From: Candidatus Aminicenantia bacterium
GTDB taxonomy: Bacteria; Acidobacteriota; Aminicenantia; UBA2199
DNA length: 64,000 nucleotides
Direction: 5' to 3'
Assembly (NCBI GenBank): GCA_965225955.1
Contig: CBDDBX010000027.1
Coordinates: forward strand, 9,057 to 73,056
Within the stretch, counting starts at the first letter, position 1; the number at the start of each line of letters is the position of its first letter. The translations under genes were made by a program, and so were the position numbers. The notes below the pieces were generated by a model. The model was not told where the DNA came from, searched no databases, and was given only the letters and a program-made list of their open reading frames with translations. Positions 4,980-24,159 of this stretch are shown here, piece after piece.

Positions 4980-5498
4980 TTATAATAGTGGTGAATTCAT
5001 CTGATCTGTATCCCAATTTTTAGGATTATTGATTATGTATTCCCGGATAATATTTAATTCCCGGTCATTCCTTATGACTCTTTCCCAATAGTTACGCTGC
5101 CAAATTTTTGTTTTATCCCCTGAATTCATTTCATTTATTTTTCTGGTAACAGTTGATTTGAAAGACCCTATAATTGTAGATAATGATTGTTTAGTGGGTA
5201 ATATGCGAGAATGTAGGGGCTTGCCATGGCACGCCCCTGGAGATACTGTCATACAGATTATGCCGTGTACGTGATTTGGCATTACTATAAATTTATCGAG
5301 GGAGATATTTGAAAAATGGTTGGGGATTTCATTCCAGATAGAAAAGGCGATTTTCCCATACTGGCTTAATGACATTCTGTTATTGATGATATTGCCAAAA
5401 TAATGTTTTTTCTCATGTGTACATATAGTTACATAGTATGCACCAGCAGATGAATAATCCCTCTGGGGTAATCTGATTGATTGTCTGTTATGTTGCAT
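4980..5498 (-). CDS. REP-associated tyrosine transposase (RAYT; IS200/IS605 TnpA-like Y1 HUH enzyme).
   Basis: 172 aa. HUH motif in 'MPNHVHGIICM'; catalytic Tyr context 'IWQRNYWERVIRND'; size and motif order typical of RAYT/TnpA_REP. Flanked on both sides by identical P1 REP palindromes (4886..4912 and 5662..5688). Confidence 0.8.
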   Translation of the reverse strand: MQHNRQSIRLPQRDYSSAGAYYVTICTHEKKHYFGNIINNRMSLSQYGKIAFSIWNEIPNHFSNISLDKFIVMPNHVHGIICMTVSPGACHGKPLHSRILPTKQSLSTIIGSFKSTVTRKINEMNSGDKTKIWQRNYWERVIRNDRELNIIREYIINNPKNWDTDQMNSPLL

Positions 5499-7357: not shown

Positions 7358-8941
7358 ATGTCAATTAAGAATTTTTTGATTGGAGGGCTTTTATCTGCCC
7401 TTGTTATGACACCTGTTTTTGGTGAGGATGATGCTTGTACTACTATTACAGTTGGTAAGAAGGCTTCAACTGATGGTTCTGTTATGACTTCACACACCTG
7501 TGATTCAAGAACCACAAGAACATGGATAGATATTGTGCCTGGAAAGAAGCATAAACCCGGTACAATGAGAAAGGTTTATGGTTCAACTGAGAGAACTGTC
7601 AGTGCAGACAACTTATCAGCAAGAAAGCTGAGAGGTGAGATTGCTCAGCAGGCAAGAACCTATAAGTATTTCAACTCTGCTCTGCCTTTTATGAATGAGA
7701 ATCAGGTTGGTATTGGTGAAGCTACTTTTGGTGGCAAAAAAGAGATGAAAAGTGATAACGGACTCATCGACTACAGGGAGCTTAACCGCCTTATGGCTGA
7801 GAGAGCTACTTCTGCAAGAGATGCTATCAGAGTTGCTGATGAGGTAACTAAGAAGTATGGTTATATCTCCGGTGGTGAGTGCTTCACTATTGCTGATACT
7901 AAAGAGGTGTGGCATCTTGAAATTGTTGGCCCTGGTAAGGGTAAAAAAGGTGCTGTATGGGTTGCTCAGAGAGTACCGGATGATCATGTTAGTGTAAATG
8001 CAAACGCTTCAAGAATCAGAGAAGTAAAGACTAATGATAAAGAGAACTTCATGTATTCAGAGAATGTCTTCTCAGCTGCTGAAGAGGCTGGTCTCTGGAG
8101 TAAATCAAGTGGTAAAACATTTGAGTTCTGTTATGTTTACGGTTCAAGAAGAAGTATGGCTTCAAGAAGAAGAGAGTGGAGGGTATTTGATCTCCTGGCT
8201 CCTGGTCTTAAACTAGATCCTAATGGAGAGAATTTTCCTTTTTCAGTAAAACCTGAAAAAAAGGTTGCCCCTTCAGATATTATGAGAATCTTCAGAGATA
8301 CTTATGAAGATACACCTTTTGATATGACCAAATATATGCTGGTTCAGGAGAAGGACGATAAAGGAAAACTTACAGGTAAGTTTGTAAAGAGTCCTTATGC
8401 TAACCCTTTTATGCACTACGATATGATGCCTCTCTTTAAAGTCAATGGTGGTTGGAATGAGATGGGGGAGAGATGTATTGCAAGATACTACTGTACTTAT
8501 GTTACCGTAATTCAGCTGAGAGACTGGCTCCCTAATGAGATCGGTGGTCTTACATGGTTTGGTCTTGATAATACAGCAACCACTTCATATGCTCCTCTCT
8601 ACGCAGGTATGACATCTGTTCCCCAGAGTTACAGAATCTGCGGTCGTCCCGGCTTTAACAGAGATAGTGCATGGTGGGCTTTTAACCGTGTTGCTGACCT
8701 TGCTGCTCAGAAATGGGGCTATATGAGAAAAGATTGTAAGAAGGTCTGGAGTGTTTATGAGAAAGAGGCCTTTGATAAACAGGCTGATATTGAAAAAGAG
8801 GCACTGCGTCTTCATAAAAAAAGTAAAAAGAAAGCATCTAAATACCTCAACAAGTACAGTAACGACTGGATGAACAAACTGGTTAAAGCGTACTGGAAAC
8901 TTGGAGATGATCTCTGGAGTAAATACACAGGAAAATTCTAA
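7358..8941 (+). CDS. Peptidase C69 family dipeptidase (secreted; Cys nucleophile right after the signal peptide).
   Basis: 'ACTTITVGKKASTDGSVMTSHTCD' matches the C69 N-terminal nucleophile region. Signal peptide MSIKNFLIGGLLSALVMTPVFG. GGAGGAG RBS 6 nt upstream of the ATG at 7358. The longer ORF-track start at 7229 reads through repeat sequence and is rejected. Confidence 0.8.
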   Translation: MSIKNFLIGGLLSALVMTPVFGEDDACTTITVGKKASTDGSVMTSHTCDSRTTRTWIDIVPGKKHKPGTMRKVYGSTERTVSADNLSARKLRGEIAQQARTYKYFNSALPFMNENQVGIGEATFGGKKEMKSDNGLIDYRELNRLMAERATSARDAIRVADEVTKKYGYISGGECFTIADTKEVWHLEIVGPGKGKKGAVWVAQRVPDDHVSVNANASRIREVKTNDKENFMYSENVFSAAEEAGLWSKSSGKTFEFCYVYGSRRSMASRRREWRVFDLLAPGLKLDPNGENFPFSVKPEKKVAPSDIMRIFRDTYEDTPFDMTKYMLVQEKDDKGKLTGKFVKSPYANPFMHYDMMPLFKVNGGWNEMGERCIARYYCTYVTVIQLRDWLPNEIGGLTWFGLDNTATTSYAPLYAGMTSVPQSYRICGRPGFNRDSAWWAFNRVADLAAQKWGYMRKDCKKVWSVYEKEAFDKQADIEKEALRLHKKSKKKASKYLNKYSNDWMNKLVKAYWKLGDDLWSKYTGKF

Positions 8942-9433: not shown

Positions 9434-10837
9434 TTAAACCGTGCGGGTTTTCCATTTGCCTTTTCTGAAGAGGTAGAGTCCTGTTATTGCCATTACTCCT
9501 TCAGCAATGATTATTGCCAGATAGACCCCTTTTGCATCCAGAGTAGAGTGGAGTGCAAGGTATATCGCCAGAGGGATTTCAAGAGCCCAGAAGCAGAATA
9601 TGTTTATAATAGTTGGAGTCATTGTATCTCCTGCTCCGTTAAAGGACTGTACCATAACCATTCCTATTCCGTAGAAGATGAATCCGTAACTTATAAATCT
9701 CAGAGCCGTTGCACCATGCTCTATAAGCAGAGGATCTGCAACCTGATTTATGTTGATGAGTTTTATGAAAACTTCAGGTATTGTAGCGAATACAATTCCC
9801 AGAATCCCCAGAATAGCAACATTGGTCATACTGGCAATCCATACAGCTCTTTCAGCTCTGTCAGATCTTTTTGCACCAAGGTTCTGACCTACAAGGGTAG
9901 CCGCTGCATTACTCAGTCCAAGAGACGGAAGAAGTGCAAAGATGATAACTCTTATGGCAATAATGTATCCTGAAGCTACCTTTGCTCCGAAGTTGTTAAC
10001 TATCTTCATGAGAATGATCCAGCTGGAAGTAACAATAATTGATTGCCCTATTCCACCTATAGATAGTTTGAATATTCTCTTCATTATGGATAAGTCGGGA
10101 ATAAAACTCTTAATATCTACTTTTACAACCCCTTTGCCCCCAAACAGAAGGTAGAACTGGTATATAACAGCAACACCACGACCTATATTTGTGGCAACTG
10201 CTGCTCCGGTAACACCCATTTCAGGAAAAGGGCCTAAACCGAAAATAAGACAGGGGTCCAGAATAATATTCAGAAGGTTTGCGAGCCACAGTACCCTCAT
10301 GGACCTTGCAGCATCACCGGAACTTCTGAAAACAGCATTAATTACAAAAAGAAGAAGAATTACACCATTTCCTGTAAGCATAACCTTTGCATAGTTACTG
10401 CCAATGGCTATAGATTCTGCAGGAGCATCCATAAGATGCAGCAGATCTGTAGAGAAGAAGAAGCCAATTGCTGCAATAACTGCAGATACAGCAATTGCAG
10501 CTACAATAGCCTGTCCTGTTACCTTTGATGCCAGTTCAGGTCTCTTTTCACCAATTCTCCTTGCAACCATGGCGGTTGTTGCTGCACTAAGGCCCACGCC
10601 AATTGAGTATACAATTGTTATAAGGGATTCGGTTGTACCAACAGCTGTAATTGCGGAGTCTCCCAGTTTTGAAACAAAGGCTATATCCACAACTGCAAAT
10701 ATTGATTCCATAACCATTTCCAGAATCATTGGAATGGAGAGGAGAAGAATTGAGCGTCCCAGAGGAAGAGAGGTGTAGTCTCTCTGAACGCCTCGAATTG
10801 AGTCAATAATATCTTTTAGTAGTCTTCTGTAGTTCAT
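9434..10837 (-). CDS. MATE family efflux transporter.
   Basis: 467 aa, ~12 predicted TM segments. N-terminal 'LLLSIPMILEMVMESIFAVVDIAFVSKLG' is typical of the MATE/NorM family. Confidence 0.8.
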   Translation of the reverse strand: MNYRRLLKDIIDSIRGVQRDYTSLPLGRSILLLSIPMILEMVMESIFAVVDIAFVSKLGDSAITAVGTTESLITIVYSIGVGLSAATTAMVARRIGEKRPELASKVTGQAIVAAIAVSAVIAAIGFFFSTDLLHLMDAPAESIAIGSNYAKVMLTGNGVILLLFVINAVFRSSGDAARSMRVLWLANLLNIILDPCLIFGLGPFPEMGVTGAAVATNIGRGVAVIYQFYLLFGGKGVVKVDIKSFIPDLSIMKRIFKLSIGGIGQSIIVTSSWIILMKIVNNFGAKVASGYIIAIRVIIFALLPSLGLSNAAATLVGQNLGAKRSDRAERAVWIASMTNVAILGILGIVFATIPEVFIKLININQVADPLLIEHGATALRFISYGFIFYGIGMVMVQSFNGAGDTMTPTIINIFCFWALEIPLAIYLALHSTLDAKGVYLAIIIAEGVMAITGLYLFRKGKWKTRTV

Positions 10838-11019: not shown

Positions 11020-12348
11020 TTAACTATTTTCTGCTGAAGTAATCTTTATAAATCTTAAGAAAAGAAGGATTGCAGCCAGAGTGAGGCCAATCAGAAGACC
11101 TGTCCAGATTCCTTTAACTCCCATATTTCCATGAAGAGACAGATACCATGCAGCAGGAAATCCAACTACCCAGTATGAGAATATAGCAATAACTGTAGGC
11201 ATTTTGGCGTCAGCCATTCCTCTCAGAGCTCCAAGGCAGACTACCTGAACGCCGTCAGATATCTGGAAAAGAGCTGCAATTATAAGAAGAGGGGAGGCCA
11301 GAGCTATAACATTGAGATCTTCACTGTACCAGGTTGGCATAACATCTCTCATAAGAGTGAATACAATACCGCATAATCCCATAAATGTTCCGGTTAATTT
11401 AACCGCAGTTACTCCTGCACTTCTTGCTCCAGTCAGATCTTTCCTGCCAAGAGCATTTCCTACTCTTACTGATGCTGCAGCTGAGACTCCAAGTCCCGCC
11501 ATATATGTTATTGATGCAAGGCTTATTGCTACCTGGTGAGCTGCAAGAGGGGCTGAACCAAGCTTACCTGCCAGAACTGCTGCTCCGGTAAATGCACCGA
11601 CTTCAAAAAAGTATTGCATACCACTGCCAAGGCCAAGTTTAAAGATCCTTTTTACACTTTTTCTTTCAGGTTTTCCGGGTATAAGTCTAAGTTTGTATTT
11701 CCTGAGTGACGGACTTCTCAGTATGTACCACACCATGGCTACAGCCATTAAGGTTCTGGTAAATAGGGTGGAATAACCAGCTCCATCAAGGCCCATTGCC
11801 GGAAACCCAAGTTTTCCGTGAATAAATACCCAGTTGAATAGTGCGTTAAAAATATTGGCAGCAATTGTTATTACCATAGCAGGAATCATAAGAGATAAGC
11901 CTTCAGCAAACTGCCTGTATATCTGAAAAACAATGAAGGGAATGATGGACCAGCCTATTATATGCAGATAGCTTGATGCCTGGGCTGCTACCTCTGCGGG
12001 CTGATCAAAACGGTGAGTGTGGTTTGAGAGAATAATAACTGCAACAAATAGTATTGCTCCTACAGCGAGAGAGATAATAGCACCTGCATTCATAACAGTT
12101 GAACACTTTCTACTGTCTCCTTTACTTTTTGCCATTGCTACATAAGGAGTAATGGCGTAGGTAAAGCCAAGACCAATAACTAAAAGAAGGAAGAATAGTG
12201 CATTTGAGAAAGATGAGGCTGCAAGAGGAACTGTACCTACTGAACCAACCATAAGACTGTCTACAACTCCCATCATAATGTGCCCCAACTGGCCTGCAAC
12301 AACGGGATATGCAAGCTTAAGTGTCTCTCTGTATTCTTTTGTATCCAT
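11020..12348 (-). CDS. MATE family efflux transporter (second, tandem copy).
   Basis: 442 aa polytopic protein. 'LAYPVVAGQLGHIMMGVVDSLMVG' is typical of the MATE N-terminus. Confidence 0.8.
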   Translation of the reverse strand: MDTKEYRETLKLAYPVVAGQLGHIMMGVVDSLMVGSVGTVPLAASSFSNALFFLLLVIGLGFTYAITPYVAMAKSKGDSRKCSTVMNAGAIISLAVGAILFVAVIILSNHTHRFDQPAEVAAQASSYLHIIGWSIIPFIVFQIYRQFAEGLSLMIPAMVITIAANIFNALFNWVFIHGKLGFPAMGLDGAGYSTLFTRTLMAVAMVWYILRSPSLRKYKLRLIPGKPERKSVKRIFKLGLGSGMQYFFEVGAFTGAAVLAGKLGSAPLAAHQVAISLASITYMAGLGVSAAASVRVGNALGRKDLTGARSAGVTAVKLTGTFMGLCGIVFTLMRDVMPTWYSEDLNVIALASPLLIIAALFQISDGVQVVCLGALRGMADAKMPTVIAIFSYWVVGFPAAWYLSLHGNMGVKGIWTGLLIGLTLAAILLFLRFIKITSAENS

Positions 12349-12501
12349 TTTTTACAACTTTTCTCCCGTCAGATTCTACCTCATAAACTCAAATACAGAA
12401 AGTACATAGAAAATTTTAGTAAAAAAACTTTTATGGTGACACTTGTATCCTGAAGGTGTGTTTAATCATGTTCAATAAGAAAAAAGGTCAGGTATTTAAG
12501 C

Positions 12502-13968
12502 GTGTGTATTAGTTTTTTGAGAAACAAAGAGATCCGTTCCTACTGGATCTTCATTATTTTAACGTTCAATCTGGTCTCCTTTATTCCTTTTAGTAACGAA
12601 GAGACCTATTTTGCACTGGCAAAGCAGTTTGTTGATCCCCAATGGATTCCAGGCTCCTTTACTTTAACAGAGTGGCCCGGAACAAGACTGGTATCCCAGT
12701 ATATTATCGGAGGGCTTCTTAAATATATGAGTTTTGAAGCTCTTGCTTTCTGGGGAAGAGTAGCTGTTTTTGCCTTAACATCCATTCCTCTGGCGGGTTT
12801 GCTGAAGCATTTCAGATTCAGACTACTGGATGGATTGCTGCTTATACAGGTATATGTGATTGCATGGCAGTCATTTTTTGCCGGAGAGTGGATATTCAAA
12901 GCCTTTGAAGGAAAGACTATAGCCTATATTTTTGTTTTCTATTCCCTCATGGCTGTATTTAAGAGGAGATATACAACTGCAGTTACCATGGGTGCTCTTG
13001 CAACCTGGTTCCATGTGCTTGTTGGTGGCTGGTTTATGCTGGCAATCCTTCTCTGGAGACTGGTTGAGTCCGGAAAGTTTTTCAAAGTGGTAAAAGAGGG
13101 ACTTCTTTATACACTTCTGATCTCTCCATTTATATACTATCTGGGAAAGACAATTCTGATGGATAGCAGATCTGTAATAAAAGGGGTAAATCTGGACTGG
13201 GTATATGTGTACTTCAGAAATTCCCACCACACAGCTCCTTTTGGAACTATCGACTGTTTTCTGAAAAATTTTGCCCTTGGTATCGTTCTTTCAATTGTTG
13301 CTTTGGTATTCTTTGTTAAGATCCGTAAAAAACTGGAAGGACCCATAGCAGCTCTTAATAATCTCAATATTGTTATCTTCTCAATCCTTTTTCTCTTTCT
13401 GCTGATAGGAGTATTTGATGTTAACGGTTCAATACTGAAATTCTATACATTCAGACTTTCAGGTTTATCTCTGTTTTTAACCTTTATGGAGCTATTTATT
13501 CTGTTCAGGCTTTTTAAAAAAGATGTAATGGAGAGAAGTAAATTTCAGAGAAATAGTACTGTTGCTCTTCTCCTGCTTTTTATAGCCGGAACAGCGGGAA
13601 ATCTGTACAGCATGAAAAAAGGTATAAGCAGACTTGAATCTATTGGAGCTGTAGCAGTAGGAGCTGCTGAGATTTCTAAAACCGGAGATGTTTTTATGTT
13701 TCTTGAGGATGATGCAGTTGAGTTTATTCGCAAATCCCGGCGTGAACGATTTGTAGTTTATAAGTTTGATCCGGGAGGCGGGGAGAAGATATACGATTGG
13801 TACGTAAGGGTTCTTGCCAAAAGGAAGGTTGAGAAGGATATCTCAGAGCTTGATGAGCTGAAAAAGAGTTACCGTATCGACTTTCTTATAAGTAGCAAGC
13901 CACTGGTTTCTGCCTCTCTTGAAGAGAAGTGGAAGAATAATAAATACTGGATTTATGGTGTCCTATGA
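12502..13968 (+). CDS. Polytopic membrane protein, GT-C-like glycosyltransferase (ArnT/PMT-like candidate) with a C-terminal soluble domain.
   Basis: 488 aa, >=10 hydrophobic segments. The first loop carries an acidic 'SNEETYFALAKQF' motif resembling the DE/DExY loop motif of GT-C enzymes. Stop overlaps the fdtA-like start (ATGA). Confidence 0.4.
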   Translation: MCISFLRNKEIRSYWIFIILTFNLVSFIPFSNEETYFALAKQFVDPQWIPGSFTLTEWPGTRLVSQYIIGGLLKYMSFEALAFWGRVAVFALTSIPLAGLLKHFRFRLLDGLLLIQVYVIAWQSFFAGEWIFKAFEGKTIAYIFVFYSLMAVFKRRYTTAVTMGALATWFHVLVGGWFMLAILLWRLVESGKFFKVVKEGLLYTLLISPFIYYLGKTILMDSRSVIKGVNLDWVYVYFRNSHHTAPFGTIDCFLKNFALGIVLSIVALVFFVKIRKKLEGPIAALNNLNIVIFSILFLFLLIGVFDVNGSILKFYTFRLSGLSLFLTFMELFILFRLFKKDVMERSKFQRNSTVALLLLFIAGTAGNLYSMKKGISRLESIGAVAVGAAEISKTGDVFMFLEDDAVEFIRKSRRERFVVYKFDPGGGEKIYDWYVRVLAKRKVEKDISELDELKKSYRIDFLISSKPLVSASLEEKWKNNKYWIYGVL

Positions 13969-14399
13969 TAGTTAAACAGAGCGGATTAATAGAGTTGCCG
14001 GTAATACCGGATGGTGTGGATGGTATGCTTTCAGTTGGTGAAGCAGAGAAGCATATTCCTTTTGACATAAGAAGAGTCTACTATATCTACAACCTCTGCA
14101 GTTCACAATCTGTAAGAGGTAAGCATGCTCATAAAGAGCTGGAGCAGGTAATATTCTGCCTGAACGGGAGTTTTACTCTTTCTCTTGATGATGGGGAGAA
14201 TCGTGAGGATATTATTATGGATCGTCCTAATAAGGGTATCGTACTTGGTAAAAGACTGTGGCATACAATGCACTCTTTTACAAGGGATACAATAATTATG
14301 GTTCTTGCTTCAGACTACTATGAAGAAGCTGATTACATAAGAGATTACAGAGAATTCAGGGAATATGTGGAAAAGGTGGACACAGATGATAATGTTTAA
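13965..14399 (+). CDS. fdtA: WxcM/FdtA-like cupin, dTDP-4-dehydro-6-deoxyglucose 3,4-ketoisomerase family.
   Basis: 144 aa. 'RRVYYIYN...SVRGKHAHKELEQVIFCLNGSF' matches FdtA/WxcM-family isomerases. Confidence 0.65.
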   Translation: MIVKQSGLIELPVIPDGVDGMLSVGEAEKHIPFDIRRVYYIYNLCSSQSVRGKHAHKELEQVIFCLNGSFTLSLDDGENREDIIMDRPNKGIVLGKRLWHTMHSFTRDTIIMVLASDYYEEADYIRDYREFREYVEKVDTDDNV

Positions 14400-15471
14400 T
14401 GATTTTAAAAGTGAATATAGAGAGCTGCGCTCAGAAATTGACAGTGCAGTGAAAAGAGTTCTTGAGAGTGGATGGTTTATTCTCGGTGAAGAGCTGAGGA
14501 AGTTTGAAGAAGAGTTTGCATCTTATAATGGGGCACAGTACTGTGTCGGGGTAGCAAGTGGAACAGATGCTATAACTCTTGGGCTTAAAGCAATGGGAAT
14601 AAAGGCTGGAGACGAGGTCCTGACAACTTCTGTAACAGCTTATCCAACGATTACAGGTATAGTTCGCAGTGGGGCTATTCCTGTAGTTGTGGATATAGAT
14701 CCTGAAAACGGACTTATAGATATTAATAAGGTAAAAGAGGCAGTTACAGAAGATACTAAAGCTATAGTTCCGGTTCATCTATATGGAGAGGTATGCAATA
14801 TGGATGAACTGATTAGCTTCTCTGAGGAAACCGGTATTCTTATTCTTGAAGACTGTGCTCAATCTGCAGGGTCAACATGGAATGGGAAGAGAGCCGGAAC
14901 CTTTGGGAGCTGCGGTGCTTTCTCTTTCTACCCAACCAAAAATCTTGGAGCTTATGGAGATGCAGGAGCTGTAGTAACAAATAGTAAAGAGATATATGAG
15001 AGAATGGTGGAACTCAGAAATTACGGAGAATCATCAAGATATCACCACACTTCAGAGGGAATAAACAGTCGCCTTGATGAGATCCAGGCAGCTATACTCC
15101 GTACAAAACTTCCTTTTCTGGACAACTGGAATAAGAAGAGAAGTGAGAATGCCGCTTTTTATAGAGAAAACCTCAGACAGGTTGAGTTTATGAAGCCTGG
15201 TGATGAGTCTGAATCCAACTATCACCTCTTTGTAATTAAAGTTGATAACAGAGATAAGTTTCTTGAGTTCCTTAAAGAGAGAGGAGTTGCTTCACTTATG
15301 CACTATCCTCTTCCTGTACATCGTCAGGAGGCTTATAGCGGCATGGTTTACGGTAATACTGTACATGCTGACAGATTTACTACTTCAATATGCTCTCTTC
15401 CGATACACCCATGGCTGACCCGGGAGGAGCTTACTGAAATTGCAGGAGTTATTAATGAGTACCGCAGATAA
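14392..15471 (+). CDS. DegT/DnrJ/EryC1/StrS family PLP-dependent sugar aminotransferase (FdtB/ArnB-like).
   Basis: 'GWFILGEELRKFEEEFASY', 'VGVASGTDAITL' and 'FSFYPTKNLGAYGDAGAV' are hallmark DegT motifs. Start chosen at MFNDFKS, overlapping the fdtA-like stop by 8 nt. Confidence 0.8.
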   Translation: MFNDFKSEYRELRSEIDSAVKRVLESGWFILGEELRKFEEEFASYNGAQYCVGVASGTDAITLGLKAMGIKAGDEVLTTSVTAYPTITGIVRSGAIPVVVDIDPENGLIDINKVKEAVTEDTKAIVPVHLYGEVCNMDELISFSEETGILILEDCAQSAGSTWNGKRAGTFGSCGAFSFYPTKNLGAYGDAGAVVTNSKEIYERMVELRNYGESSRYHHTSEGINSRLDEIQAAILRTKLPFLDNWNKKRSENAAFYRENLRQVEFMKPGDESESNYHLFVIKVDNRDKFLEFLKERGVASLMHYPLPVHRQEAYSGMVYGNTVHADRFTTSICSLPIHPWLTREELTEIAGVINEYRR

Positions 15472-16402
15472 ACTGATATCTGTTGTTATTCCTGTCTATA
15501 ATAGCGAAGATACTATTCCCAGAGTAGTGGAATCTGTACTCGGGGTACTCGATAATGTTGAAATAGTATTGGTTAACGATGGATCAGCAGACAATTCACA
15601 TGAGGTCTGCTCTGATCTGACAGAGAAGTTTAGTGGAAAGGTGCGCTACTACTCTCTTGCCCGTAATGTAGGTGAGCATAACGCAGTAATGGCTGGTCTC
15701 AACTGCTGCAATGGAGATTATGCGGTTATTATGGATGATGATTTTCAGAATCCCGTAAGTGAAGTTAAAAAGCTGGTGAATTATGCACTGGAAAACAGTT
15801 TTGATGTGGTTTACACATATTATGCAGAGAAAAAACACCATCTGTTCCGTAATCTGGGGAGTAAGTTTAATGATAAAGTTGCGAACCTGATGCTTAAGAA
15901 GCCAAAAGGCCTCTATCTTTCCAGTTTTAAGATTCTCAACAGATTTCTTATAGATGAAGTTATAAAATATAGCCTTCCTTTTCCATATATCGATGGCCTG
16001 ATACTCCGTTCAACAGCAAATATAGGGACACTTCAGGTTAAACATGAAGCCCGGGAAACAGGGAAATCCGGCTATACATTTATGAAGCTGCTCTCATTGT
16101 GGTCAAATATGTTTGTGAACTTTTCGGTTCTTCCTCTGAGAGTAACCACTATTGCAGGGTTTATCTTTTCGGGACTGGGTTTTATTCTGGGAATCACAGC
16201 AGTAGTTGAAAAGTTTCTGAATCCTCATCTACCTGCAGGTTATACCCTGCTGGTAACTGCAATAACTATCTTCTCAGGTATTCAGCTGATTGCAGCAGGA
16301 ATGCTGGGGGAGTATCTGGGGCGGATGTTTCTATCACAGAACAGGACTCCCCAATACACTATAAGAGAGAGCTTTGGTACTGAAGAGTTGAAAAAAAAGT
16401 AA
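15455..16402 (+). CDS. GT2 family polyprenyl-phosphate glycosyltransferase (ArnC/GtrB/DPM1-like) with C-terminal TM helices.
   Basis: 'ISVVIPVYNSEDTIPRVVESV...VLVNDGSADNS' and 'VIMDDDFQNP' (DXD); two C-terminal hydrophobic helices. AGGAG RBS 6 nt upstream of the chosen ATG. Confidence 0.75.
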   Translation: MSTADKLISVVIPVYNSEDTIPRVVESVLGVLDNVEIVLVNDGSADNSHEVCSDLTEKFSGKVRYYSLARNVGEHNAVMAGLNCCNGDYAVIMDDDFQNPVSEVKKLVNYALENSFDVVYTYYAEKKHHLFRNLGSKFNDKVANLMLKKPKGLYLSSFKILNRFLIDEVIKYSLPFPYIDGLILRSTANIGTLQVKHEARETGKSGYTFMKLLSLWSNMFVNFSVLPLRVTTIAGFIFSGLGFILGITAVVEKFLNPHLPAGYTLLVTAITIFSGIQLIAAGMLGEYLGRMFLSQNRTPQYTIRESFGTEELKKK

Positions 16403-16435: not shown

Positions 16436-17242
16436 ATGAGCTATTCTGAAACAGATACTTTTTTTGAGAACCTGAAGAGAAGATACCGTAAAGTATATCC
16501 TGCTTCTGAGAGAGTTGAAGAGATTCTCGGGAATGGTAATGGAGAGATTATTAATGATCACATTGCCTTTCGTACTATTGATCACCCGAAGGTGAATATT
16601 GAGAGAATTGCAGGCTTCATACTTAATCTCGGATATGAAGAGAAGAAGAGATATGTAATCGATTCAAAACATCTTCTTGCAAGGCATTATGAGCATAAGA
16701 GTGGTAACTATCCCAGAATATTCATAAGTGAGCTGAGGCTTGCTGATTTTTCTGATAAGTTCAGAAAGATCTTTAACGATATTGTGGAGCAGATAGATGA
16801 TAGTTATCTTCAGAGTGAAGCTGTTTTCTATAGTGGTAAAATGTGGGACATCAGCTATGAGAACTATAATGAATTGCTGAAAGAGAGTCAGTATGGAGCA
16901 TGGTTCTCAACTATGGGATATATTGCAAACCACTTTACTGTTAGTGTTAATAAGCTGGAGAAGTTTGAAAATCTTGTTCAGGTTAATGAGGCTCTTAAAG
17001 CCGGAGGCTTTAAGATGAATCAGTCTGAAGGGGAGATCAAGGGTTCACCTGAACTTCTGCTTGAACAGTCATCGGTAATTGCTGATGATACTGAGGTGAC
17101 ATTTACAGAAGGGGTAAAAGCTGTACCAGGATGTTACTATGAGTTTGCTCTGAGATACAGAGATAAGAGTGGTAATTTATTTAACGGATTCATTGCGCAG
17201 TCTGCTGAAAAAATTTTTGAAAGCACAGATACTGCAGAATAG
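16436..17242 (+). CDS. DUF1338 family protein (HglS/YdcJ-like 2-oxoadipate dioxygenase/decarboxylase family).
   Basis: 268 aa. 'INDHIAFRTIDHP' N-terminal motif characteristic of DUF1338. AGGAGG RBS upstream. Confidence 0.6.
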   Translation: MSYSETDTFFENLKRRYRKVYPASERVEEILGNGNGEIINDHIAFRTIDHPKVNIERIAGFILNLGYEEKKRYVIDSKHLLARHYEHKSGNYPRIFISELRLADFSDKFRKIFNDIVEQIDDSYLQSEAVFYSGKMWDISYENYNELLKESQYGAWFSTMGYIANHFTVSVNKLEKFENLVQVNEALKAGGFKMNQSEGEIKGSPELLLEQSSVIADDTEVTFTEGVKAVPGCYYEFALRYRDKSGNLFNGFIAQSAEKIFESTDTAE

Positions 17243-17256
17243 ATTAAGAGAAATTA

Positions 17257-17283
17257 ATCCTCAGCATATCGGATGCTGAGGAT
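17257..17283. terminator. Bidirectional rho-independent terminator-like hairpin between convergent genes.
   Basis: 'atcctcagcat atcgg atgctgaggat' forms an 11-bp stem, followed by 'tatattatgatttta' on the plus strand and a T-rich run on the minus strand. Confidence 0.55.
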
Positions 17284-17295
17284 TATATTATGATT

Positions 17296-18321: not shown

Positions 18322-20586
18322 TTGGACTTTAAGATAATGCTCAGTTTTATAAAAAGATTAAAACTCAAAAACAAGTTGATAGTCGTAATCCTCAGCATTA
18401 CATCGTGCATTATTATTCTGGGTTCAACTCTGCTGACCTATTTCAACTACTCAAGACTTAAAGACAATATGATTAAAACCACAAGAGTTCTGGCTCTTGT
18501 AACAGGTAACAGTCTTATACCTGAACTCAGTTTTGATCGTCCCGATGATGCCCACGATGTTCTGGATAAGATAAGAAATATTTCACGTATTAAAAACGTA
18601 TTTGTTTTTGATGAAACCGATAAACTCTTTGTTTCATATACATATTCAAATGATTATGAGATGAAGACACCGGAACTTAAGAAGAAGTTTAATGCCTGGT
18701 TCAGTGAGCAGTATCTGCACCTTTTCCAGCCAATAATACACAGAAATGTTATATATGGAGTAATCTATCTGCGGGTTTCCACAAAACAACTAGATGAAGA
18801 TATTGAGAAGAACATTCTTCTGGTTGCCGGGGTAATTGTGCTCCTGATTATTATATCTTTTGTACTTGCGATTCTTCTGCAGAATGTTATTTCAGAGCCA
18901 ATACTCAAACTTGCTGAAGTTGCCAACAGAATCTCTTCTCTTGGTAATTACGGAATAAGAGTAGAGTATAGTTCTTCCGATGAGATAGGGCAGCTTTATC
19001 AGGGGTTTAACTCAATGATAAGGCAGATTCAGAAGAGAGAACGTCAGCTTGATGCTGCCCGTACTTTTCTGACAGATATTATTGAATCAATGCCTTCAGT
19101 ACTTATTGCAATAAACGGTGATGAAGAGATTACCCACTGGAACAGAGCTGCAACAAATATGCTCGGAATTGTGTCTCTTAATGCTATAGGGCAGAAACTG
19201 TGGGATGTGTCACCGGAATTTGAAACTTACAGAAGCAGTATTATTTCTGCTCTTCAGAAAAAAGAGACTCTTACTTACCATAAGAAAATCTTCAGAAGAG
19301 GTCATGAGAAAAACTTTGTAAATCTCTCTTTCTACCCTATAACCACCAATGGTCTTAACAGCATGGTAATCATGGCCGTTGATGTTACAGAAATTGAGAC
19401 CAAGGAGCAACAGCTCAGACAGGCCCAGAAAATGGAAACGGTTGGTACTCTGGCAGGGGGACTTGCTCACGATTTTAATAATGTACTCGGGGGTATAATA
19501 GGAACTCTCTCTCTGGTTAATGTTAAGATGAAGAGAGAGCAGCTATCTATGGATGGTGTCAAGAGCTATCTTAATGATATTTCAAACCTTGCAAGCAGAG
19601 CTACAGATATGGTACAGCAACTACTTGCTCTTTCAAGAAAAGAGGAACTGACATTCTCTACAATAGATCTCTCAAGAACCATTGAGAGTGTAATGAAAAT
19701 ATGTAAAACCACCTTTGATAAAAGTATTGAGGTTATTTCAGAATTTGATGCTGAGCCTGTAATAATTCATGCTGACCAGACTCAGATTGAGCAGGTTTTC
19801 CTCAACTTATGTGTTAATGCGGCTCATTCAATGACGATTATGAGACCTGGAGGAGACCGGTGGGGTGGTCAGATTAATCTGAGTTACAGAAAGATATATG
19901 CTGATGATGAACTTATAAATGCACAGCCTGAAGCAAGACCAGGGTGGTACTGGGCTGTACGGATAAAGGACCAGGGAGTTGGTATAGATTTAAACTCTCT
20001 TAACAAGATCTTTGACCCCTTCTATACAACAAAAGAGAAAGGTGTTGGTACAGGTCTCGGGCTTGCAATGGTTTACAATATTATTCTTCAGCATAAAGGT
20101 TTTATTAAAGTGGAGTCTGAACCTGGAAGAGGTACTTCATTTACAATCTATCTGCCTGAAATGGTGGCAGGTAACGACTCTATGATGATAAAGCAATCAC
20201 GACATGTATCAGTTAAGTGTGATGGTATAGTACTTGTGATTGATGATGAACTGGTTTTGAGAAAACTGGCTACCCATATTCTTGAAGATATGGGGCTTTC
20301 AGTAATGGTTGCAGAAGATGGGGAAAAAGGAATTGAGATCTTCAGGCAACATAAAGATAAAATAGATCTTGTTATACTTGATATGCTTATGCCAAGAAAA
20401 TCAGGTATAGAGGTTTATGAGAGTTTGAAAGCGTCAAAAGATGATGTAAAAGTAATTCTTGCATCAGGGTTCAGAAAAGATGAGAGGGTTGAGAAGGTTA
20501 TTGAGATGGGGGTGGATAAGTTTATTGAGAAACCCTATACTTATGAAACTCTTTCAGAAACTGTTGTGGAAGTTCTTAAGAGCTGA
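18322..20586 (+). CDS. Hybrid sensor histidine kinase / response regulator (TM sensor, HAMP, PAS, HisKA, HATPase_c, C-terminal REC).
   Basis: H-box 'LAGGLAHDFNNVLGGI'; G-boxes 'GVGIDL...GTGLGLAMV'; receiver 'VLVIDDE...DLVILDMLMPRKSG'. Confidence 0.85.
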   Translation: MDFKIMLSFIKRLKLKNKLIVVILSITSCIIILGSTLLTYFNYSRLKDNMIKTTRVLALVTGNSLIPELSFDRPDDAHDVLDKIRNISRIKNVFVFDETDKLFVSYTYSNDYEMKTPELKKKFNAWFSEQYLHLFQPIIHRNVIYGVIYLRVSTKQLDEDIEKNILLVAGVIVLLIIISFVLAILLQNVISEPILKLAEVANRISSLGNYGIRVEYSSSDEIGQLYQGFNSMIRQIQKRERQLDAARTFLTDIIESMPSVLIAINGDEEITHWNRAATNMLGIVSLNAIGQKLWDVSPEFETYRSSIISALQKKETLTYHKKIFRRGHEKNFVNLSFYPITTNGLNSMVIMAVDVTEIETKEQQLRQAQKMETVGTLAGGLAHDFNNVLGGIIGTLSLVNVKMKREQLSMDGVKSYLNDISNLASRATDMVQQLLALSRKEELTFSTIDLSRTIESVMKICKTTFDKSIEVISEFDAEPVIIHADQTQIEQVFLNLCVNAAHSMTIMRPGGDRWGGQINLSYRKIYADDELINAQPEARPGWYWAVRIKDQGVGIDLNSLNKIFDPFYTTKEKGVGTGLGLAMVYNIILQHKGFIKVESEPGRGTSFTIYLPEMVAGNDSMMIKQSRHVSVKCDGIVLVIDDELVLRKLATHILEDMGLSVMVAEDGEKGIEIFRQHKDKIDLVILDMLMPRKSGIEVYESLKASKDDVKVILASGFRKDERVEKVIEMGVDKFIEKPYTYETLSETVVEVLKS

Positions 20587-20671: not shown

Positions 20672-22858
20672 TTGAAGAAATTTCCGGTTTATATACAGCA
20701 TGACGCTATGGATTGTGGGCCTACATGCCTGCGTATGGTTGCAGAGCATTACGGGAAAAGATACTCTCTTCAGACACTGAGAGATAAGAGTTTCATAACC
20801 AGAGAAGGTGTTTCCATGCTTGGGATCAGTGATGCTGCTGAATCCATTGGTATGAGAACAATGGGTGTAAGAATCTCTTTTAATAAACTAAAAACAGAAG
20901 GTGTTCTGCCCTGTATAGTTCACTGGAAACAGAACCATTTTGTAGTTGTGTTCCGTTTCCATAAAGGACTTGTATATGTATCTGACCCTGCACACGGAAT
21001 AGTTAAATATACAGAAGAGGAGTTCTGTGCAGCCTGGGCTACTACCAGAGATGGTGGTGAGGATCAGGGACTTTGTCTTCTTCTTGAACCTTCTCCCGAG
21101 TTCTATAAAATGGAAGATGAGAAGATAGACAAGAAGGGGCTTAAGTTTATGCTAAGGTATCTTAAACCTTATAAGAAACTTATAAGCCAGCTCTTTCTTG
21201 GGATGGCTACAGGAAGTTTGCTCCAGCTGATTTTTCCTTTTCTTACCCAGTCCATTGTGGATGTCGGTATTAACAATCAGGATATAAATTTTGTATATCT
21301 TATTCTCATTGCACAGCTTGTGCTTTTTGTAAGTCAGACAGCAGTGGGAATGATAAGGAGCTGGATACTACTCCATATAAGTAGCCGTATAAACATCTCT
21401 CTTATTTCAGATTTCCTTATGAAACTTCTGAGGCTTCCTATAGGTTTCTTCGATACGAAAATGATAGGTGATATTCTGCAGAGAATAGGGGATCATACAA
21501 GAATCGAATCTTTTCTTACCTCTTCAACTCTCAGTATAATCTTTTCGATGTTCAATCTGGTTATTTTTTCAGTGGTTCTTGGAATCTACAATATGAAGAT
21601 TTTCGGAATCTTCATTCTTGGTTCTGTACTCTATTTCATCTGGGTATATCTCTTTATGAAGAAGAGAAGAGAGCTGGACTTTAAAAGATTTGCCCAGATG
21701 TCAAGCAACCAGTCTTCTCTGATTCAGCTTATAAACGGGATTCAGGAGATTAAGCTGAATAATTGTGAGAAGCAGAAGAGATGGGAGTGGGAAAAGATCC
21801 AGGCCCAGCTGTTTAAAATCAATGTAAAGAGTATGGCTCTTAACCAGTATCAGCAGTCAGGTTCAGGCTTTATTAATGAAATCAAGAATATCTTTATCTC
21901 ATTTTTTGCTGCAAGCAGCGTGATAAACGGAGATATGACCCTTGGTATGATGCTATCAGTTCAGTATATCATCGGTCAGCTCAATGCACCTATTGAGCAG
22001 CTTATCGGTTTTGTTCATTCAGCTCAGGATGCAAAAATGAGTGTGGAGCGTCTTGGGGAGATACACAATAAAGAGGATGAAATTAATGAAGATGTTCACG
22101 TCTCAGATCTGCCTGAAGAGAAAGGGTTCAATATAAAAGATCTCTCTTTTCAGTACGAAGGCCCCCATTCAGAGAGAGTTCTTAAGAACCTCAATCTTGC
22201 TATTCCTGAGAATAAAACCACAGCTATAGTTGGAGCAAGTGGTAGTGGTAAGACCACTATGGTAAAGCTTTTACTTGGGTTCTATCCTCCTGCAGATGGG
22301 GAGATTCAGGTGGGGCGGATGAATCTTGCAGATATAAATCCTTCTATATGGCGACAGAACTGTGGTGTAGTAATGCAGGATGGTTTTATATTCTCAGATA
22401 CTATTGCACGAAACGTAGCAGTAAGTGATGAGGTTGTAGATAAAAAACGACTTGTTAATGCAGTAAAAACTGCCTGTATATACGATTTCATCAAATCTCT
22501 GCCTCTGGGGTTCAATACAAAAATCGGTGCTGATGGTCACGGGTTGAGTCAGGGGCAGAAACAGAGACTTCTTATTGCAAGAGCTGTATATAAGAACCCC
22601 TCTTTTCTCTTTCTGGATGAAGCTACTAATGCTCTGGATGCAAACAATGAAAGAGCAATTATGGATAATATGAATGAGTTCTTTAAAAACAGAACTGTTG
22701 TAGTTGTAGCTCATAGATTAAGTACAGTTAAAGATGCAGATCAGATTGTTGTACTGGATAATGGGCAGATAATTGAAATTGGCACCCATAACGAACTTAC
22801 TTCTGCCCGGGGGGCTTACTATATGCTTGTAAAAAATCAATTGGAGCTTGGTAACTGA
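20672..22858 (+). CDS. Peptidase C39 domain-containing ABC transporter (bacteriocin/double-glycine-leader peptide exporter, permease plus ATPase).
   Basis: N-terminal 'QHDAMDCGPTCLRMVAEHYG' gives the C39 Cys. Walker A 'GASGSGKTT', ABC signature 'LSQGQKQRLLIARA', Walker B 'FLFLDEATNALD'. TTG start with an AGGAG RBS. Confidence 0.85.
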   Translation: MKKFPVYIQHDAMDCGPTCLRMVAEHYGKRYSLQTLRDKSFITREGVSMLGISDAAESIGMRTMGVRISFNKLKTEGVLPCIVHWKQNHFVVVFRFHKGLVYVSDPAHGIVKYTEEEFCAAWATTRDGGEDQGLCLLLEPSPEFYKMEDEKIDKKGLKFMLRYLKPYKKLISQLFLGMATGSLLQLIFPFLTQSIVDVGINNQDINFVYLILIAQLVLFVSQTAVGMIRSWILLHISSRINISLISDFLMKLLRLPIGFFDTKMIGDILQRIGDHTRIESFLTSSTLSIIFSMFNLVIFSVVLGIYNMKIFGIFILGSVLYFIWVYLFMKKRRELDFKRFAQMSSNQSSLIQLINGIQEIKLNNCEKQKRWEWEKIQAQLFKINVKSMALNQYQQSGSGFINEIKNIFISFFAASSVINGDMTLGMMLSVQYIIGQLNAPIEQLIGFVHSAQDAKMSVERLGEIHNKEDEINEDVHVSDLPEEKGFNIKDLSFQYEGPHSERVLKNLNLAIPENKTTAIVGASGSGKTTMVKLLLGFYPPADGEIQVGRMNLADINPSIWRQNCGVVMQDGFIFSDTIARNVAVSDEVVDKKRLVNAVKTACIYDFIKSLPLGFNTKIGADGHGLSQGQKQRLLIARAVYKNPSFLFLDEATNALDANNERAIMDNMNEFFKNRTVVVVAHRLSTVKDADQIVVLDNGQIIEIGTHNELTSARGAYYMLVKNQLELGN

Positions 22859-24159
22859 TGTGTGAAGAGAATTATGACAATATCGAACTGAGAAGTGAAG
22901 AAGTTCAGGAGATAATGGGATATGTGCCACACTGGGTGGTTAGAAGTGGTATTGCTACGGTTTTTGCGGTTCTTCTGCTTCTTCTTACCGGAAGCTGCTT
23001 TTTTAAATATCCCGATGTAATAGAATCAACTGTACTTATAACAACAGCAAACCCTCCGGCTAAGGTTGTGGCTGCTATCTCTGAAAAGATTGAAGAGATA
23101 AAAGTGAAAAATGAAGAGATCGTTAAAGAGGGTGATGTTCTTGCTGTGCTCAGGAGTTCTGCAGCTGCTTCAGATATGCTTACTCTCAAGAGTGAACTTG
23201 GAGATTTCCGTAAAGGTTTTGTAAAAGACAGGAATACAGAGCTCTCTTTTAAAAATTATACTCTTGGGGATCTGCAGAGCAGATATGAGAACCTCATAAT
23301 AGCTATAAACGATTACAAAGACTTTATGGATCTGGACTATTACGGAAATAAGATCGCCGGAGCTAAAGAGAGATTGAAACAGTATCGTTCCAAAACAGAT
23401 GTTGTTGTGGAGCAGGTGAAGCTTAAAAAGAGAGAGCTTACTCTTGGAGAGAGGCATTTTAAAAGAGCTGAAGATCTTTACAGGAAAGGAATTCTTTCAA
23501 AAGAGGCTTATGACGATGCTGAAGGCAGGTGGCTGGCAGTTCAGAACAGTTATGAATCTGCCAAAGGACTGGAAGCAGATACACATATTCAGGTACAGAA
23601 TCTTAAGGAATCCATTGGAGAGCTTGAGCTCAAACAGCTGGGAGATCGCAGAAAGTATGAGTATAAGGTAAAAGAGTCTGTAGATATTCTGAGAAGCAGT
23701 ATCTCAAACTGGGAACTGAAGTATCTGCTGGTAGCACCGGTTAGCGGGAGAGTGGCATTCAGTGAATTCTGGAGTGTAAACCACAATGTAAAGGCCGGAG
23801 CAACTGTAATGACAGTGATACCTGAGGGAACAAACAAGAAAATAATCGGTAAAGTGGTTCTGCCTCTCCAGAGATCCGGTAAAGTGAAAGAGGGGCAGAG
23901 AGTTAATATAAAAGTACACAACTACCCCCATATGGAGTATGGAATGTTAAAAGGAGTGGTGCAGAAAGTAGCACTGATACCTTCTGATGACAGCTATGTT
24001 GTAGACGTATCTTTGCCGGAGCGTCTTAAAACAAATTATGGTAAGAAGCTCAAATTTATTGAAGAGATGAGAGGACAGGCAGAGATTATCACAGAGGATA
24101 TGAGGTTAATTGAGAGATTCATTAACCCTATTATTTCTCTCTTTAAAAAGAGTAGTTAA
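22858..24159 (+). CDS. HlyD family secretion protein (membrane fusion protein partner of the ABC exporter).
   Basis: 433 aa: one N-terminal TM, long coiled-coil region, C-terminal beta domain. Start overlaps the ABC stop. Confidence 0.75.
   Translation: MCEENYDNIELRSEEVQEIMGYVPHWVVRSGIATVFAVLLLLLTGSCFFKYPDVIESTVLITTANPPAKVVAAISEKIEEIKVKNEEIVKEGDVLAVLRSSAAASDMLTLKSELGDFRKGFVKDRNTELSFKNYTLGDLQSRYENLIIAINDYKDFMDLDYYGNKIAGAKERLKQYRSKTDVVVEQVKLKKRELTLGERHFKRAEDLYRKGILSKEAYDDAEGRWLAVQNSYESAKGLEADTHIQVQNLKESIGELELKQLGDRRKYEYKVKESVDILRSSISNWELKYLLVAPVSGRVAFSEFWSVNHNVKAGATVMTVIPEGTNKKIIGKVVLPLQRSGKVKEGQRVNIKVHNYPHMEYGMLKGVVQKVALIPSDDSYVVDVSLPERLKTNYGKKLKFIEEMRGQAEIITEDMRLIERFINPIISLFKKSS

Follow-up and report, generated by a model that had tools for sequence, protein, structure and literature searches.

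The subject of this analysis is a cluster of four overlapping genes at positions 12502-16402 of a 64,000-nucleotide (nt) stretch of DNA from Candidatus Aminicenantia bacterium (contig CBDDBX010000027.1, positions 9,057 to 73,056 of the forward strand; the whole stretch is referred to as the window and supplies the coordinates used here, except for those given with a locus designation). The cluster encodes a membrane protein with a predicted GT-C fold, a sugar ketoisomerase, a DegT-family aminotransferase and a membrane-anchored glycosyltransferase of family GT2, and we incline, with moderate confidence, to the view that these proteins constitute an extracytoplasmic glycosylation pathway of the three-component (Arn/Gtr-like) type that includes its own donor branch. 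As in such systems, a GtrB-type synthase and a GT-C transferase are linked, here within one overlapping operon.

Organization and conservation of the four-gene cluster

The cluster comprises the following genes:

12502..13968, plus strand: putative GT-C-fold membrane glycosyltransferase, DUF6798 family by homology, 488 amino acids (aa), 11 predicted transmembrane (TM) helices, cytoplasmic N-terminus
13965..14399, plus strand: putative FdtA/QdtA-type dTDP-4-keto-6-deoxyglucose 3,4-ketoisomerase, cupin, 144 aa (PF05523)
14386..15471, plus strand: DegT-family pyridoxal phosphate (PLP)-dependent sugar aminotransferase, predicted C-3 (PF01041); Shine-Dalgarno sequence before ATG 14386
15455..16402, plus strand: putative ArnC/GtrB-type GT2 polyprenyl-phosphate glycosyltransferase, two C-terminal TM helices (PF00535)

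All four open reading frames (ORFs) were confirmed, and consecutive genes overlap. The stop codon of the GT-C gene and the start codon of the FdtA gene share the ATGA at 13965-13968. The FdtA stop codon lies at 14397-14399, and in-frame ATGs for the DegT gene are found at 14386 and 14392, of which the former, preceded by AAGGTGGA, is the likely start and gives an overlap of 14 nt. The DegT gene in turn ends at 15469-15471, and the likely GT2 start is the ATG at 15455 with AGGAG 7 nt before it, corresponding to an overlap of 17 nt. The longest ORFs open further upstream, at 14365 for the DegT gene and with a TTG at 15440 for GT2; these positions are the longest-possible starts and not the likely ones, the Shine-Dalgarno sequences being located at 14372-14379 and 15443-15447, respectively. 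The overlap at each junction makes translational coupling plausible throughout, in line with the first-pass annotation, which had described four translationally coupled genes. The cluster has a GC content of 0.39-0.41, no different from the rest of the window.

The order GT-C, FdtA, DegT, GT2 recurs in at least 12 other independent loci (designated L005, L007, L009/L085, L011, L084, L086, L088, L092, L096, L097 and L108, and partly L004), the proteins of which are 33-85% identical to those of the window (33-68% in the case of GT-C, 61-81% in that of GT2). Because the same four genes occur in the same order at so many sites, the arrangement is not due to chance, and the earlier treatment of the four genes as one unit is thereby upheld. 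L005, L007, L009/L085 and L011 were retrieved from GTDB and belong to Bacteroidales metagenome-assembled genomes and to Tannerella sp. oral taxon 808 (L011). The only close relative of the window is L086, which shares with it the order of multidrug and toxic compound extrusion (MATE), cluster, HGLS, thioredoxin and MarR genes. Neither an acyltransferase nor a small flippase-like gene is present in the conserved four-gene clusters, and a small flippase of the GtrA or ArnE/F type is likewise missing from the Bacteroidales clusters. In L011, a toxin-antitoxin-like pair (8019-8698), consisting of a 116-aa protein and a 110-aa protein that by eye reads as a helix-turn-helix protein of the XRE type, is inserted between FdtA and DegT and splits the otherwise overlapping operon.

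The membrane protein: a predicted GT-C fold and homology to DUF6798

The window membrane protein itself yields no Pfam match (E <= 0.01) and no NCBIfam match. A database search returned 51 relatives, the closest with 68% and the next with about 40% identity, and the family alignment comprises 26 members including the window protein. PF20604 (DUF6798) is matched by 23 of the 26, with a best E of 3.1e-28; the window protein is not among them and aligns over its full length with the matching members at 20-68% identity, making it, by homology, a divergent member of DUF6798. The family is large: when 1.84 billion cluster representatives were searched with its profile, 5,561 members were detected at E <= 1e-3, and 1,472 remained at E <= 1e-30, while a GTDB scan located it mainly in Bacteroidota and Planctomycetota, the best relative in the GTDB representative set showing 40% identity. 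No mention of DUF6798 was found in the searched literature.

The fold of this protein is revealed by structure prediction alone. In the model, which is of high confidence, the polytopic membrane protein matches solved enzymes of the GT-C superfamily, the fold-similarity figures being 14.9 for ALG12, 14.8 for AftA, 13.9 for DPY19, 13.7 for Pmt4, 13.6 for ArnT, 13.1 for both Pmt2 and STT3B, 12.4 for ALG9, 12.3 for PglB and 11.6 for AglB, compared with 7.3 for FtsW as the nearest polytopic membrane match outside GT-C. Foldseek returns the same list of GT-C enzymes. Hence, the polytopic, GT-C-like character ascribed to the protein in the first-pass annotation is supported by the structure model and by Foldseek. 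The family, for which GT83 and GT39 had been weighed against others, is a different matter: by sequence, the protein is a member of neither. ArnT is structurally no closer to it than ALG12, AftA and DPY19, a profile search of all PDB chain sequences with the 26-member profile gave nothing relevant and no ArnT or PMT, and none of the 26 members matches PMT (PF02366) or PMT_2 (PF13231) at E <= 1. Membership in the ArnT (GT83) or PMT (GT39) families was therefore rejected. Neither sequence nor fold places the protein in the Wzy, EpsG or WaaL polymerase-ligase families.

The acidic motif NEETYFA, noted earlier, is real (residues 32-38), and its first glutamate, E33, is conserved in at least 90% of the 26 members. 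E33 directly follows TM1 and is placed by the positive-inside topology in the periplasm, within the first extracytoplasmic loop, which makes it a candidate catalytic residue. Based on the helix boundaries of the model and the positive-inside rule, lysine and arginine account for 9 of 26 'in' loop residues versus 8 of 110 'out' residues, a distribution that argues for 11 TM helices, with the N-terminus inside and the C-terminal alpha/beta domain (about 95 residues) on the outer side. The conserved polar positions, namely E33, E129, E136, K138, H171, Y235, R239, H242/H243, K313, Y315 and R318, are all situated in predicted periplasmic loops or at their edges. Judged on the model, this arrangement is what one would expect of a GT-C active site with a donor linked to a lipid phosphate, and the DUF6798 protein is predicted to move a lipid-linked amino sugar onto an acceptor.

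A distinct context of the family was observed in L001 (7076-11991, in a 6.2-Mb genome). Here, a DUF6798 homologue (35% identity) is flanked on one side by another GtrB-like GT2 and on the other by a 529-aa protein for which Pfam records no family, after which an LPG_synthase_TM (MprF flippase-like) protein is encoded. The latter may represent an alternative flippase partner for the DUF6798 family.

The predicted amino-sugar enzymes

The isomerase matches PF05523 (E 4.6e-46), and its best solved relative is FdtA of Aneurinibacillus thermoaerophilus (2pa7; E 5.6e-38), with QdtA and WlaRA scoring somewhat lower. Its RGKHAHK segment aligns to RGFHAHK of FdtA, where the two histidines are known to be catalytic, and retains the His-x-His pattern. 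Similarity scores of this kind cannot decide between the galacto configuration of FdtA products and the gluco configuration of QdtA products. The aminotransferase matches PF01041 (E 2.5e-112) and contains the motif SFYPTKNLG of the Schiff-base (PLP) lysine. The two top-scoring solved chains are uninformatively named (7b0d, E 2e-118; 7n63, E 8.5e-89), and the named high-scoring relatives are the C-3 enzymes DesV (2oga), QdtB (3frk), WlaRG (5u1z) and WbpE, with E values of 1e-75 to 1e-89, compared with only 3e-46 for the C-4 enzyme ArnB. The enzyme is therefore predicted to act at C-3, regiospecificity being a property that sequence can suggest and not prove. Both proteins thus retain the identities given to them at first reading, an FdtA/WxcM-type 3,4-ketoisomerase and a DegT-family aminotransferase, and both are closest to enzymes that make dTDP-3-amino-3,6-dideoxyhexoses.

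The first-pass annotation had also stated that the cluster contains no N-acyltransferase. This is correct: no FdtC/QdtC-like N-acyltransferase was found in the cluster, in the 64-kb window or in the conserved clusters elsewhere, and for the window the negative result extends to hexapeptide-repeat acyltransferases in general (crude repeat screen and Pfam scans of ORFs of at least 150 aa). A Formyl_trans_N gene in L084 was considered as an ArnA-like sugar formyltransferase and set aside; its product has 189 aa, the size of PurN, and the gene is absent from the other loci.

The putative GT2 synthase and its partners elsewhere

The GT2 protein matches PF00535 (E 2.7e-31) and consists of a GT-A domain, the DXD motif of which lies within IMDDDFQNP, and a C-terminal pair of TM helices (238-256 and 270-288) as determined by hydropathy. 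Its best NCBIfam match is ArnC (PRK10714; E 2.8e-49) at 167.9 bits, which is below the equivalog cut-off of 529 bits, and the match to the PgfS model (3.6e-42) also remains under its equivalog cut-off. In contrast to these model scores, which place it at a distance from the characterized enzymes, the protein aligns end to end with solved ArnC (9bhc; residues 6-306 versus 8-313, E 2.3e-41) and with GtrB (5ekp; E 8e-30), in both cases over the catalytic domain and on through the juxtamembrane and C-terminal TM helices. This full-length similarity substantiates the ArnC/GtrB architecture proposed in the first pass, and we regard the protein as a putative polyprenyl-phosphate glycosyltransferase of the ArnC/GtrB type, a class in which donor specificity is not readable from sequence.

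A metagenome scan with GT2 yielded 80 loci of 54-66% identity. In 45 of these, a DegT gene is separated from the GT2 start by about 100 nt or less, and 25 contain FdtA, many of the contigs being too short to show it. The membrane partner of the GT2 orthogroup varies and includes, apart from DUF6798, PMT_2+YkcB_C (L166), PMT (L091), GT87 (L129) and DUF6044, a polytopic and uncharacterized family, in L113 and L141. Comparison by hhalign of the DUF6798 profile with the PMT_2 protein of L166 gave a probability of 0.07%, and with the DUF6044 protein of L141 no detectable homology (probability <1%); hence, the varying partners cannot be merged into one sequence family. Such a pattern would be expected if a donor module of aminotransferase and carrier synthase were combined with GT-C transferases that can be exchanged for one another.

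Several further features of these sister loci deserve mention. The DUF6044 proteins of about 680 aa (L141, 9241-11262; L113, 4936-6990) lie beside DegT, GT2, methyltransferase and FdtA genes and may constitute another GT-C transferase family; no mention of DUF6044 was found in the searched literature. A gene for an S-adenosylmethionine (SAM) methyltransferase of about 250 aa often directly follows GT2 (L141, 7942-8721; L113, 3717-4457; L150, 7996-8754), and its product weakly resembles the sugar N-methyltransferases CalS10 and DesVI. In L101 (7929-9122), a methyltransferase beside GT2 is fused to a GtrA flippase domain, this being the only sister locus with GtrA. By their similarity, these methyltransferases hint at a lipid-carried, N-methylated 3-amino sugar.

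The likely acceptor

Six Bacteroidales loci (L005, L007, L009/L085, L011, L084 and L088) carry lipopolysaccharide (LPS) inner-core genes within 3 kb of the cluster, namely DUF4254, a GT9 glycosyltransferase and/or an LPS kinase of the 3-deoxy-D-manno-octulosonic acid (Kdo)/WaaP family, which is often fused to or adjoins a GT2. In L084 there is an overlap between the kinase-GT2 gene and the GT-C start, and in L085 a Wzy_C (WaaL-like) gene is found two genes downstream of the cluster. Since these inner-core neighbours are the strongest evidence on the acceptor, LPS inner core or lipid A is its most likely identity, a best guess from gene context. Of the acceptors named in the first-pass annotation (lipid A or LPS core, glycan or protein), the Bacteroidales neighbours thus speak for one in the envelope and near LPS. 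No structure with 3-amino-3,6-dideoxygalactose (Fuc3N) or 3-amino-3,6-dideoxyglucose (Qui3N) in lipid A or core was found in the searched literature, nor was anything on point for FdtA together with ArnC or GT-C.

Proposed pathway and alternative explanations

The following sequence of reactions would account for the cluster; we infer its substrates, lipid carrier, flipping step and acceptor, as well as every chemical step, from the data above. RmlA and RmlB, encoded elsewhere, would supply dTDP-4-keto-6-deoxyglucose, which FdtA would isomerize to the 3-keto sugar for amination at C-3 by the DegT enzyme, yielding dTDP-Fuc3N or dTDP-Qui3N. Subsequently, GT2 would load the sugar onto undecaprenyl phosphate at the cytoplasmic membrane face, and a flippase encoded outside the window would move the lipid-linked sugar across the membrane. 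Finally, the DUF6798 GT-C enzyme, with its conserved acidic and basic residues in the periplasm, would transfer the single sugar to an envelope acceptor.

A bolder version of this pathway, which we consider possible and yet rather doubtful, holds that DUF6798, as an unrecognized GT-C family, places an unacylated and therefore cationic 3-amino-3,6-dideoxyhexose from an undecaprenyl-phosphate donor on LPS inner core or lipid A. This would be a second charge-modification route, independent of 4-amino-4-deoxy-L-arabinose (Ara4N) and operating without a formylation/deformylation cycle. It would occur in Bacteroidales of oral and environmental origin, Tannerella sp. oral taxon 808 among them, and would have spread to other phyla. 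The free amine is a speculation from the absence of an acyltransferase, helped indirectly by the methyltransferases of the sister loci, and resistance to cationic peptides is a speculation by analogy.

Several observations weigh against the glycosylation pathway as a whole. Its support consists throughout of homology and gene context. Among the window ORFs scanned (64 kb) there is no rmlA or rmlB, and no ORF of 80-200 aa with at least three hydrophobic segments, as expected for a GtrA- or ArnE/F-type flippase, occurs in the 64 kb. Five of the 26 aligned membrane proteins show weak Pfam matches to the polymerase family EpsG (best E 3e-4). Moreover, the LPS-core context is carried over to the host of the window from another phylum, the Bacteroidales: the neighbours in the window and in L086 are MATE, HGLS and thioredoxin genes and not LPS genes, and DUF6798 relatives without FdtA linkage have no LPS-core neighbours.

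Three other explanations have to be considered. One retains the same machinery and has the sugar N-acylated (acetyl, formyl or other) by an enzyme encoded elsewhere, so that the product would be a neutral side branch of N-acetylated Fuc3N or Qui3N (Fuc3NAc/Qui3NAc) on O-antigen, capsule or S-layer glycan and not a charge-modifying decoration of lipid A or core; we regard it as unlikely, though worth keeping in view. In the Arn pathway, ArnC needs an N-formylated donor, and the 3-amino-3,6-dideoxyhexoses of known glycans are, to our knowledge, almost always N-acylated; both points weaken the free-amine idea and agree with the neutral branch, as does the Wzy_C-family gene near the cluster in L085. 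A precedent is provided by Xanthomonas campestris: in mutants of wxcK (aminotransferase) and of wxcN (GtrA-like small membrane protein), the rhamnan O-antigen no longer bears its Fuc3NAc branch (PMC4878081). For the same system, a GT2 assignment is listed for WxcL, and WxcO is given as a possible transferase of the lipid-linked sugar (PMC13133917). In X. campestris, however, the acetyltransferase is encoded in the cluster itself, as a WxcM fusion, whereas no acyl- or formyltransferase is found in the window or in the four-gene clusters conserved at 12 or more loci. The SAM methyltransferases of the sister loci, which weakly resemble sugar N-methyltransferases, would be in keeping with an unacylated amine, and the Bacteroidales neighbours are inner-core and not O-antigen genes.

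The acceptor might, instead, be a protein: the DUF6798 enzyme would then attach an O-, N- or C-linked single sugar to periplasmic or surface proteins in the manner of PMT, DPY19 or AglB, as the streptococcal Pgf system does with a GT2 (PgfS), the model of which our GT2 matches, and a GT-C enzyme. This appears quite improbable in view of the Bacteroidales gene context, which favours LPS core, and of the alignment, in which no WWDYG-type or other sequon-binding motif is found; the fold does not discriminate between acceptors, as ALG12, AftA and ArnT score equally or higher. Least probable of all, in our judgement, is a partly coincidental linkage, in which GT2 uses an unrelated donor such as UDP-glucose (UDP-Glc) or UDP-N-acetylglucosamine (UDP-GlcNAc), or the membrane protein acts as a polymerase, ligase or permease instead of a glycosyltransferase, and FdtA and DegT feed another, cytoplasmic glycosyltransferase. 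The limits of sequence in respect of donor specificity, the distance of GT2 from characterized enzymes and the weak EpsG matches leave some room for it. On the other hand, all four genes overlap, and the GT2 orthogroup adjoins DegT in dozens of unrelated loci from metagenomes, with FdtA often there as well, even where the membrane partner differs; this pattern argues strongly against a GT2 unconnected to the amino-sugar enzymes.

Transcription unit, neighbouring genes and origin of the cluster

Three further features adjoin the cluster:

12469..12513, plus strand: short upstream ORF, MFNKKKGQVFKRVY and stop, 14 codons, read from the sequence; overlaps the GTG start of the GT-C gene
16436..17242, plus strand: HGLS/DUF1338-like gene (PF07063, E 6.5e-27)
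17255..17285, no strand assigned: hairpin with a 13-bp stem between convergent genes, from the terminator scan

The ATG and first codons of the upstream ORF (ATGTTCAATAAGAAAA), together with the GTG start of the GT-C gene, are kept in L086 with its 68%-identical relative, and the ORF may serve as a leader or coupling ORF. The HGLS-like gene starts after a 33-nt spacer from GT2 with an AGGAGG of its own. The hairpin, likely a bidirectional terminator that closes the transcription unit, is the first terminator-like element downstream, and hence the HGLS-like gene is probably on the same transcript. Its synteny with the cluster is kept in L086 and not in the Bacteroidales loci; with no known link to glycosylation genes or sugar metabolism, it may not be a functional part of the cluster.

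The two MATE genes reported upstream in the first-pass annotation (9434-10837 and 11020-12348) do exist, but they are on the opposite strand and divergently transcribed, and their products fit NorM-type efflux models. Beyond the window, it is only in L086 that such genes go with the cluster; in Bacteroidales they do not. Owing to their divergent orientation and their absence from the Bacteroidales clusters, the suggested functional tie to the cluster is unsupported. These features, together with the NorM-type matches, led us to reject the pumps as candidate MOP-superfamily flippases of the lipid-linked sugar.

The nearest GTDB relatives of the cluster belong to Bacteroidales, whereas the window encodes a methyl-accepting chemotaxis protein (MCP) chemoreceptor (60292-62286), a Reg_prop/Y_Y_Y-GGDEF protein (50884-53952) and a DUF4388 protein (47334-48470). 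The MCP, GGDEF and DUF4388 genes and the use of Shine-Dalgarno sequences argue against a Bacteroidota host, which, given these nearest relatives, suggests that the cluster was laterally transferred. Elsewhere in the window, at 20672-24159, a bacteriocin/peptide export pair is made up of an ABC transporter that carries a C39 peptidase domain at its N-terminus and, after it, an HlyD-family protein; just upstream of the pair, a hybrid CHASE8/PAS histidine kinase is encoded (18322-20586). An ORF at 4980-5498 partially matches the IS200-like Y1 transposase model, in its last third, and may be a transposase remnant. The Rfam scan returned tRNA only.

Significance and comparison with known systems

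If the proposed pathway is true, a likely function and fold would be assigned to the large uncharacterized family DUF6798, and Fuc3N or Qui3N, possibly as a free amine, would join the short list of envelope monosaccharides delivered by undecaprenyl phosphate. It would also provide a testable prediction for the structure of LPS core or lipid A in Bacteroidales, including the oral Tannerella phylotype, where envelope charge and glycan decoration influence antimicrobial-peptide resistance and innate immune recognition. Moreover, the occurrence of one GT2 orthogroup with several GT-C families points to amino-sugar decoration by a modular toolkit, which might be usable in glycoengineering.

In general, three-component periplasmic glycosylation combines a polyprenyl-phosphate-monosaccharide synthase of the GtrB/ArnC type with a variable GT-C transferase (PMC11127046). 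The proposed logic of the window cluster is that of the Gtr, Arn, Rgt (Rhizobium RgtE with RgtA-D on LPS core/lipid A), Pgf (PgfS/PgfM) and GT136 pentofuranose systems; it differs from them in that the donor sugar would be made by dedicated genes of the same operon, in that the GT-C partner comes from the uncharacterized DUF6798 family and in that no flippase gene is linked in the window. The pathway architecture therefore follows known three-component logic and entails no new principle. The Arn/Gtr-like interpretation of the first-pass annotation holds for the architecture of the pathway, whereas ArnT membership does not hold, the MATE tie is unsupported and cationic-peptide resistance is speculative.

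The cluster differs in several respects from the Arn pathway proper, which puts L-Ara4N on lipid A. Arn employs UDP-Ara4N, while a dTDP-linked 3-amino-3,6-dideoxyhexose is predicted for the window, and the aminotransferase groups with C-3 enzymes and not with the C-4 enzyme ArnB. The ArnA/ArnD formyltransferase/deformylase cycle and ArnE/F have no counterpart in the window cluster. ArnT is a GT83 enzyme with PMT/PMT_2 signature, which the window GT-C protein lacks, and GT2 attains 168 bits against the ArnC cut-off of 529 bits. With respect to sugar synthesis, the cluster resembles FdtA/FdtB/FdtC of Aneurinibacillus, which lead to dTDP-Fuc3NAc, and QdtA/QdtB/QdtC of Thermoanaerobacterium, which lead to dTDP-Qui3NAc, the window isomerase being nearest to FdtA and the aminotransferase strongly like QdtB, DesV and WlaRG. 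Those pathways, however, include the N-acetyltransferase FdtC or QdtC, which the window cluster does not, and pass their product straight into a growing glycan by a cytoplasmic transferase, whereas a lipid carrier served by the membrane GT2 is predicted here.

The closest specific precedent is wxcK-wxcO (wxc region 3) of X. campestris. Both blocks contain an FdtA-type isomerase, a DegT aminotransferase, a GT2 and a polytopic membrane protein, and both imply that a 3-amino-3,6-dideoxyhexose is delivered via a lipid carrier after the main glycan has been made (PMC4878081, PMC13133917). The Xanthomonas system has the acetyltransferase domain of WxcM and the GtrA-like WxcN, neither of which occurs in the window cluster. 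The membrane partner is WxcO, known here by description, in Xanthomonas and the DUF6798 protein in the window, and the acceptor is the O-antigen backbone in the former and, as judged from gene context, likely the inner core or lipid A in the latter.

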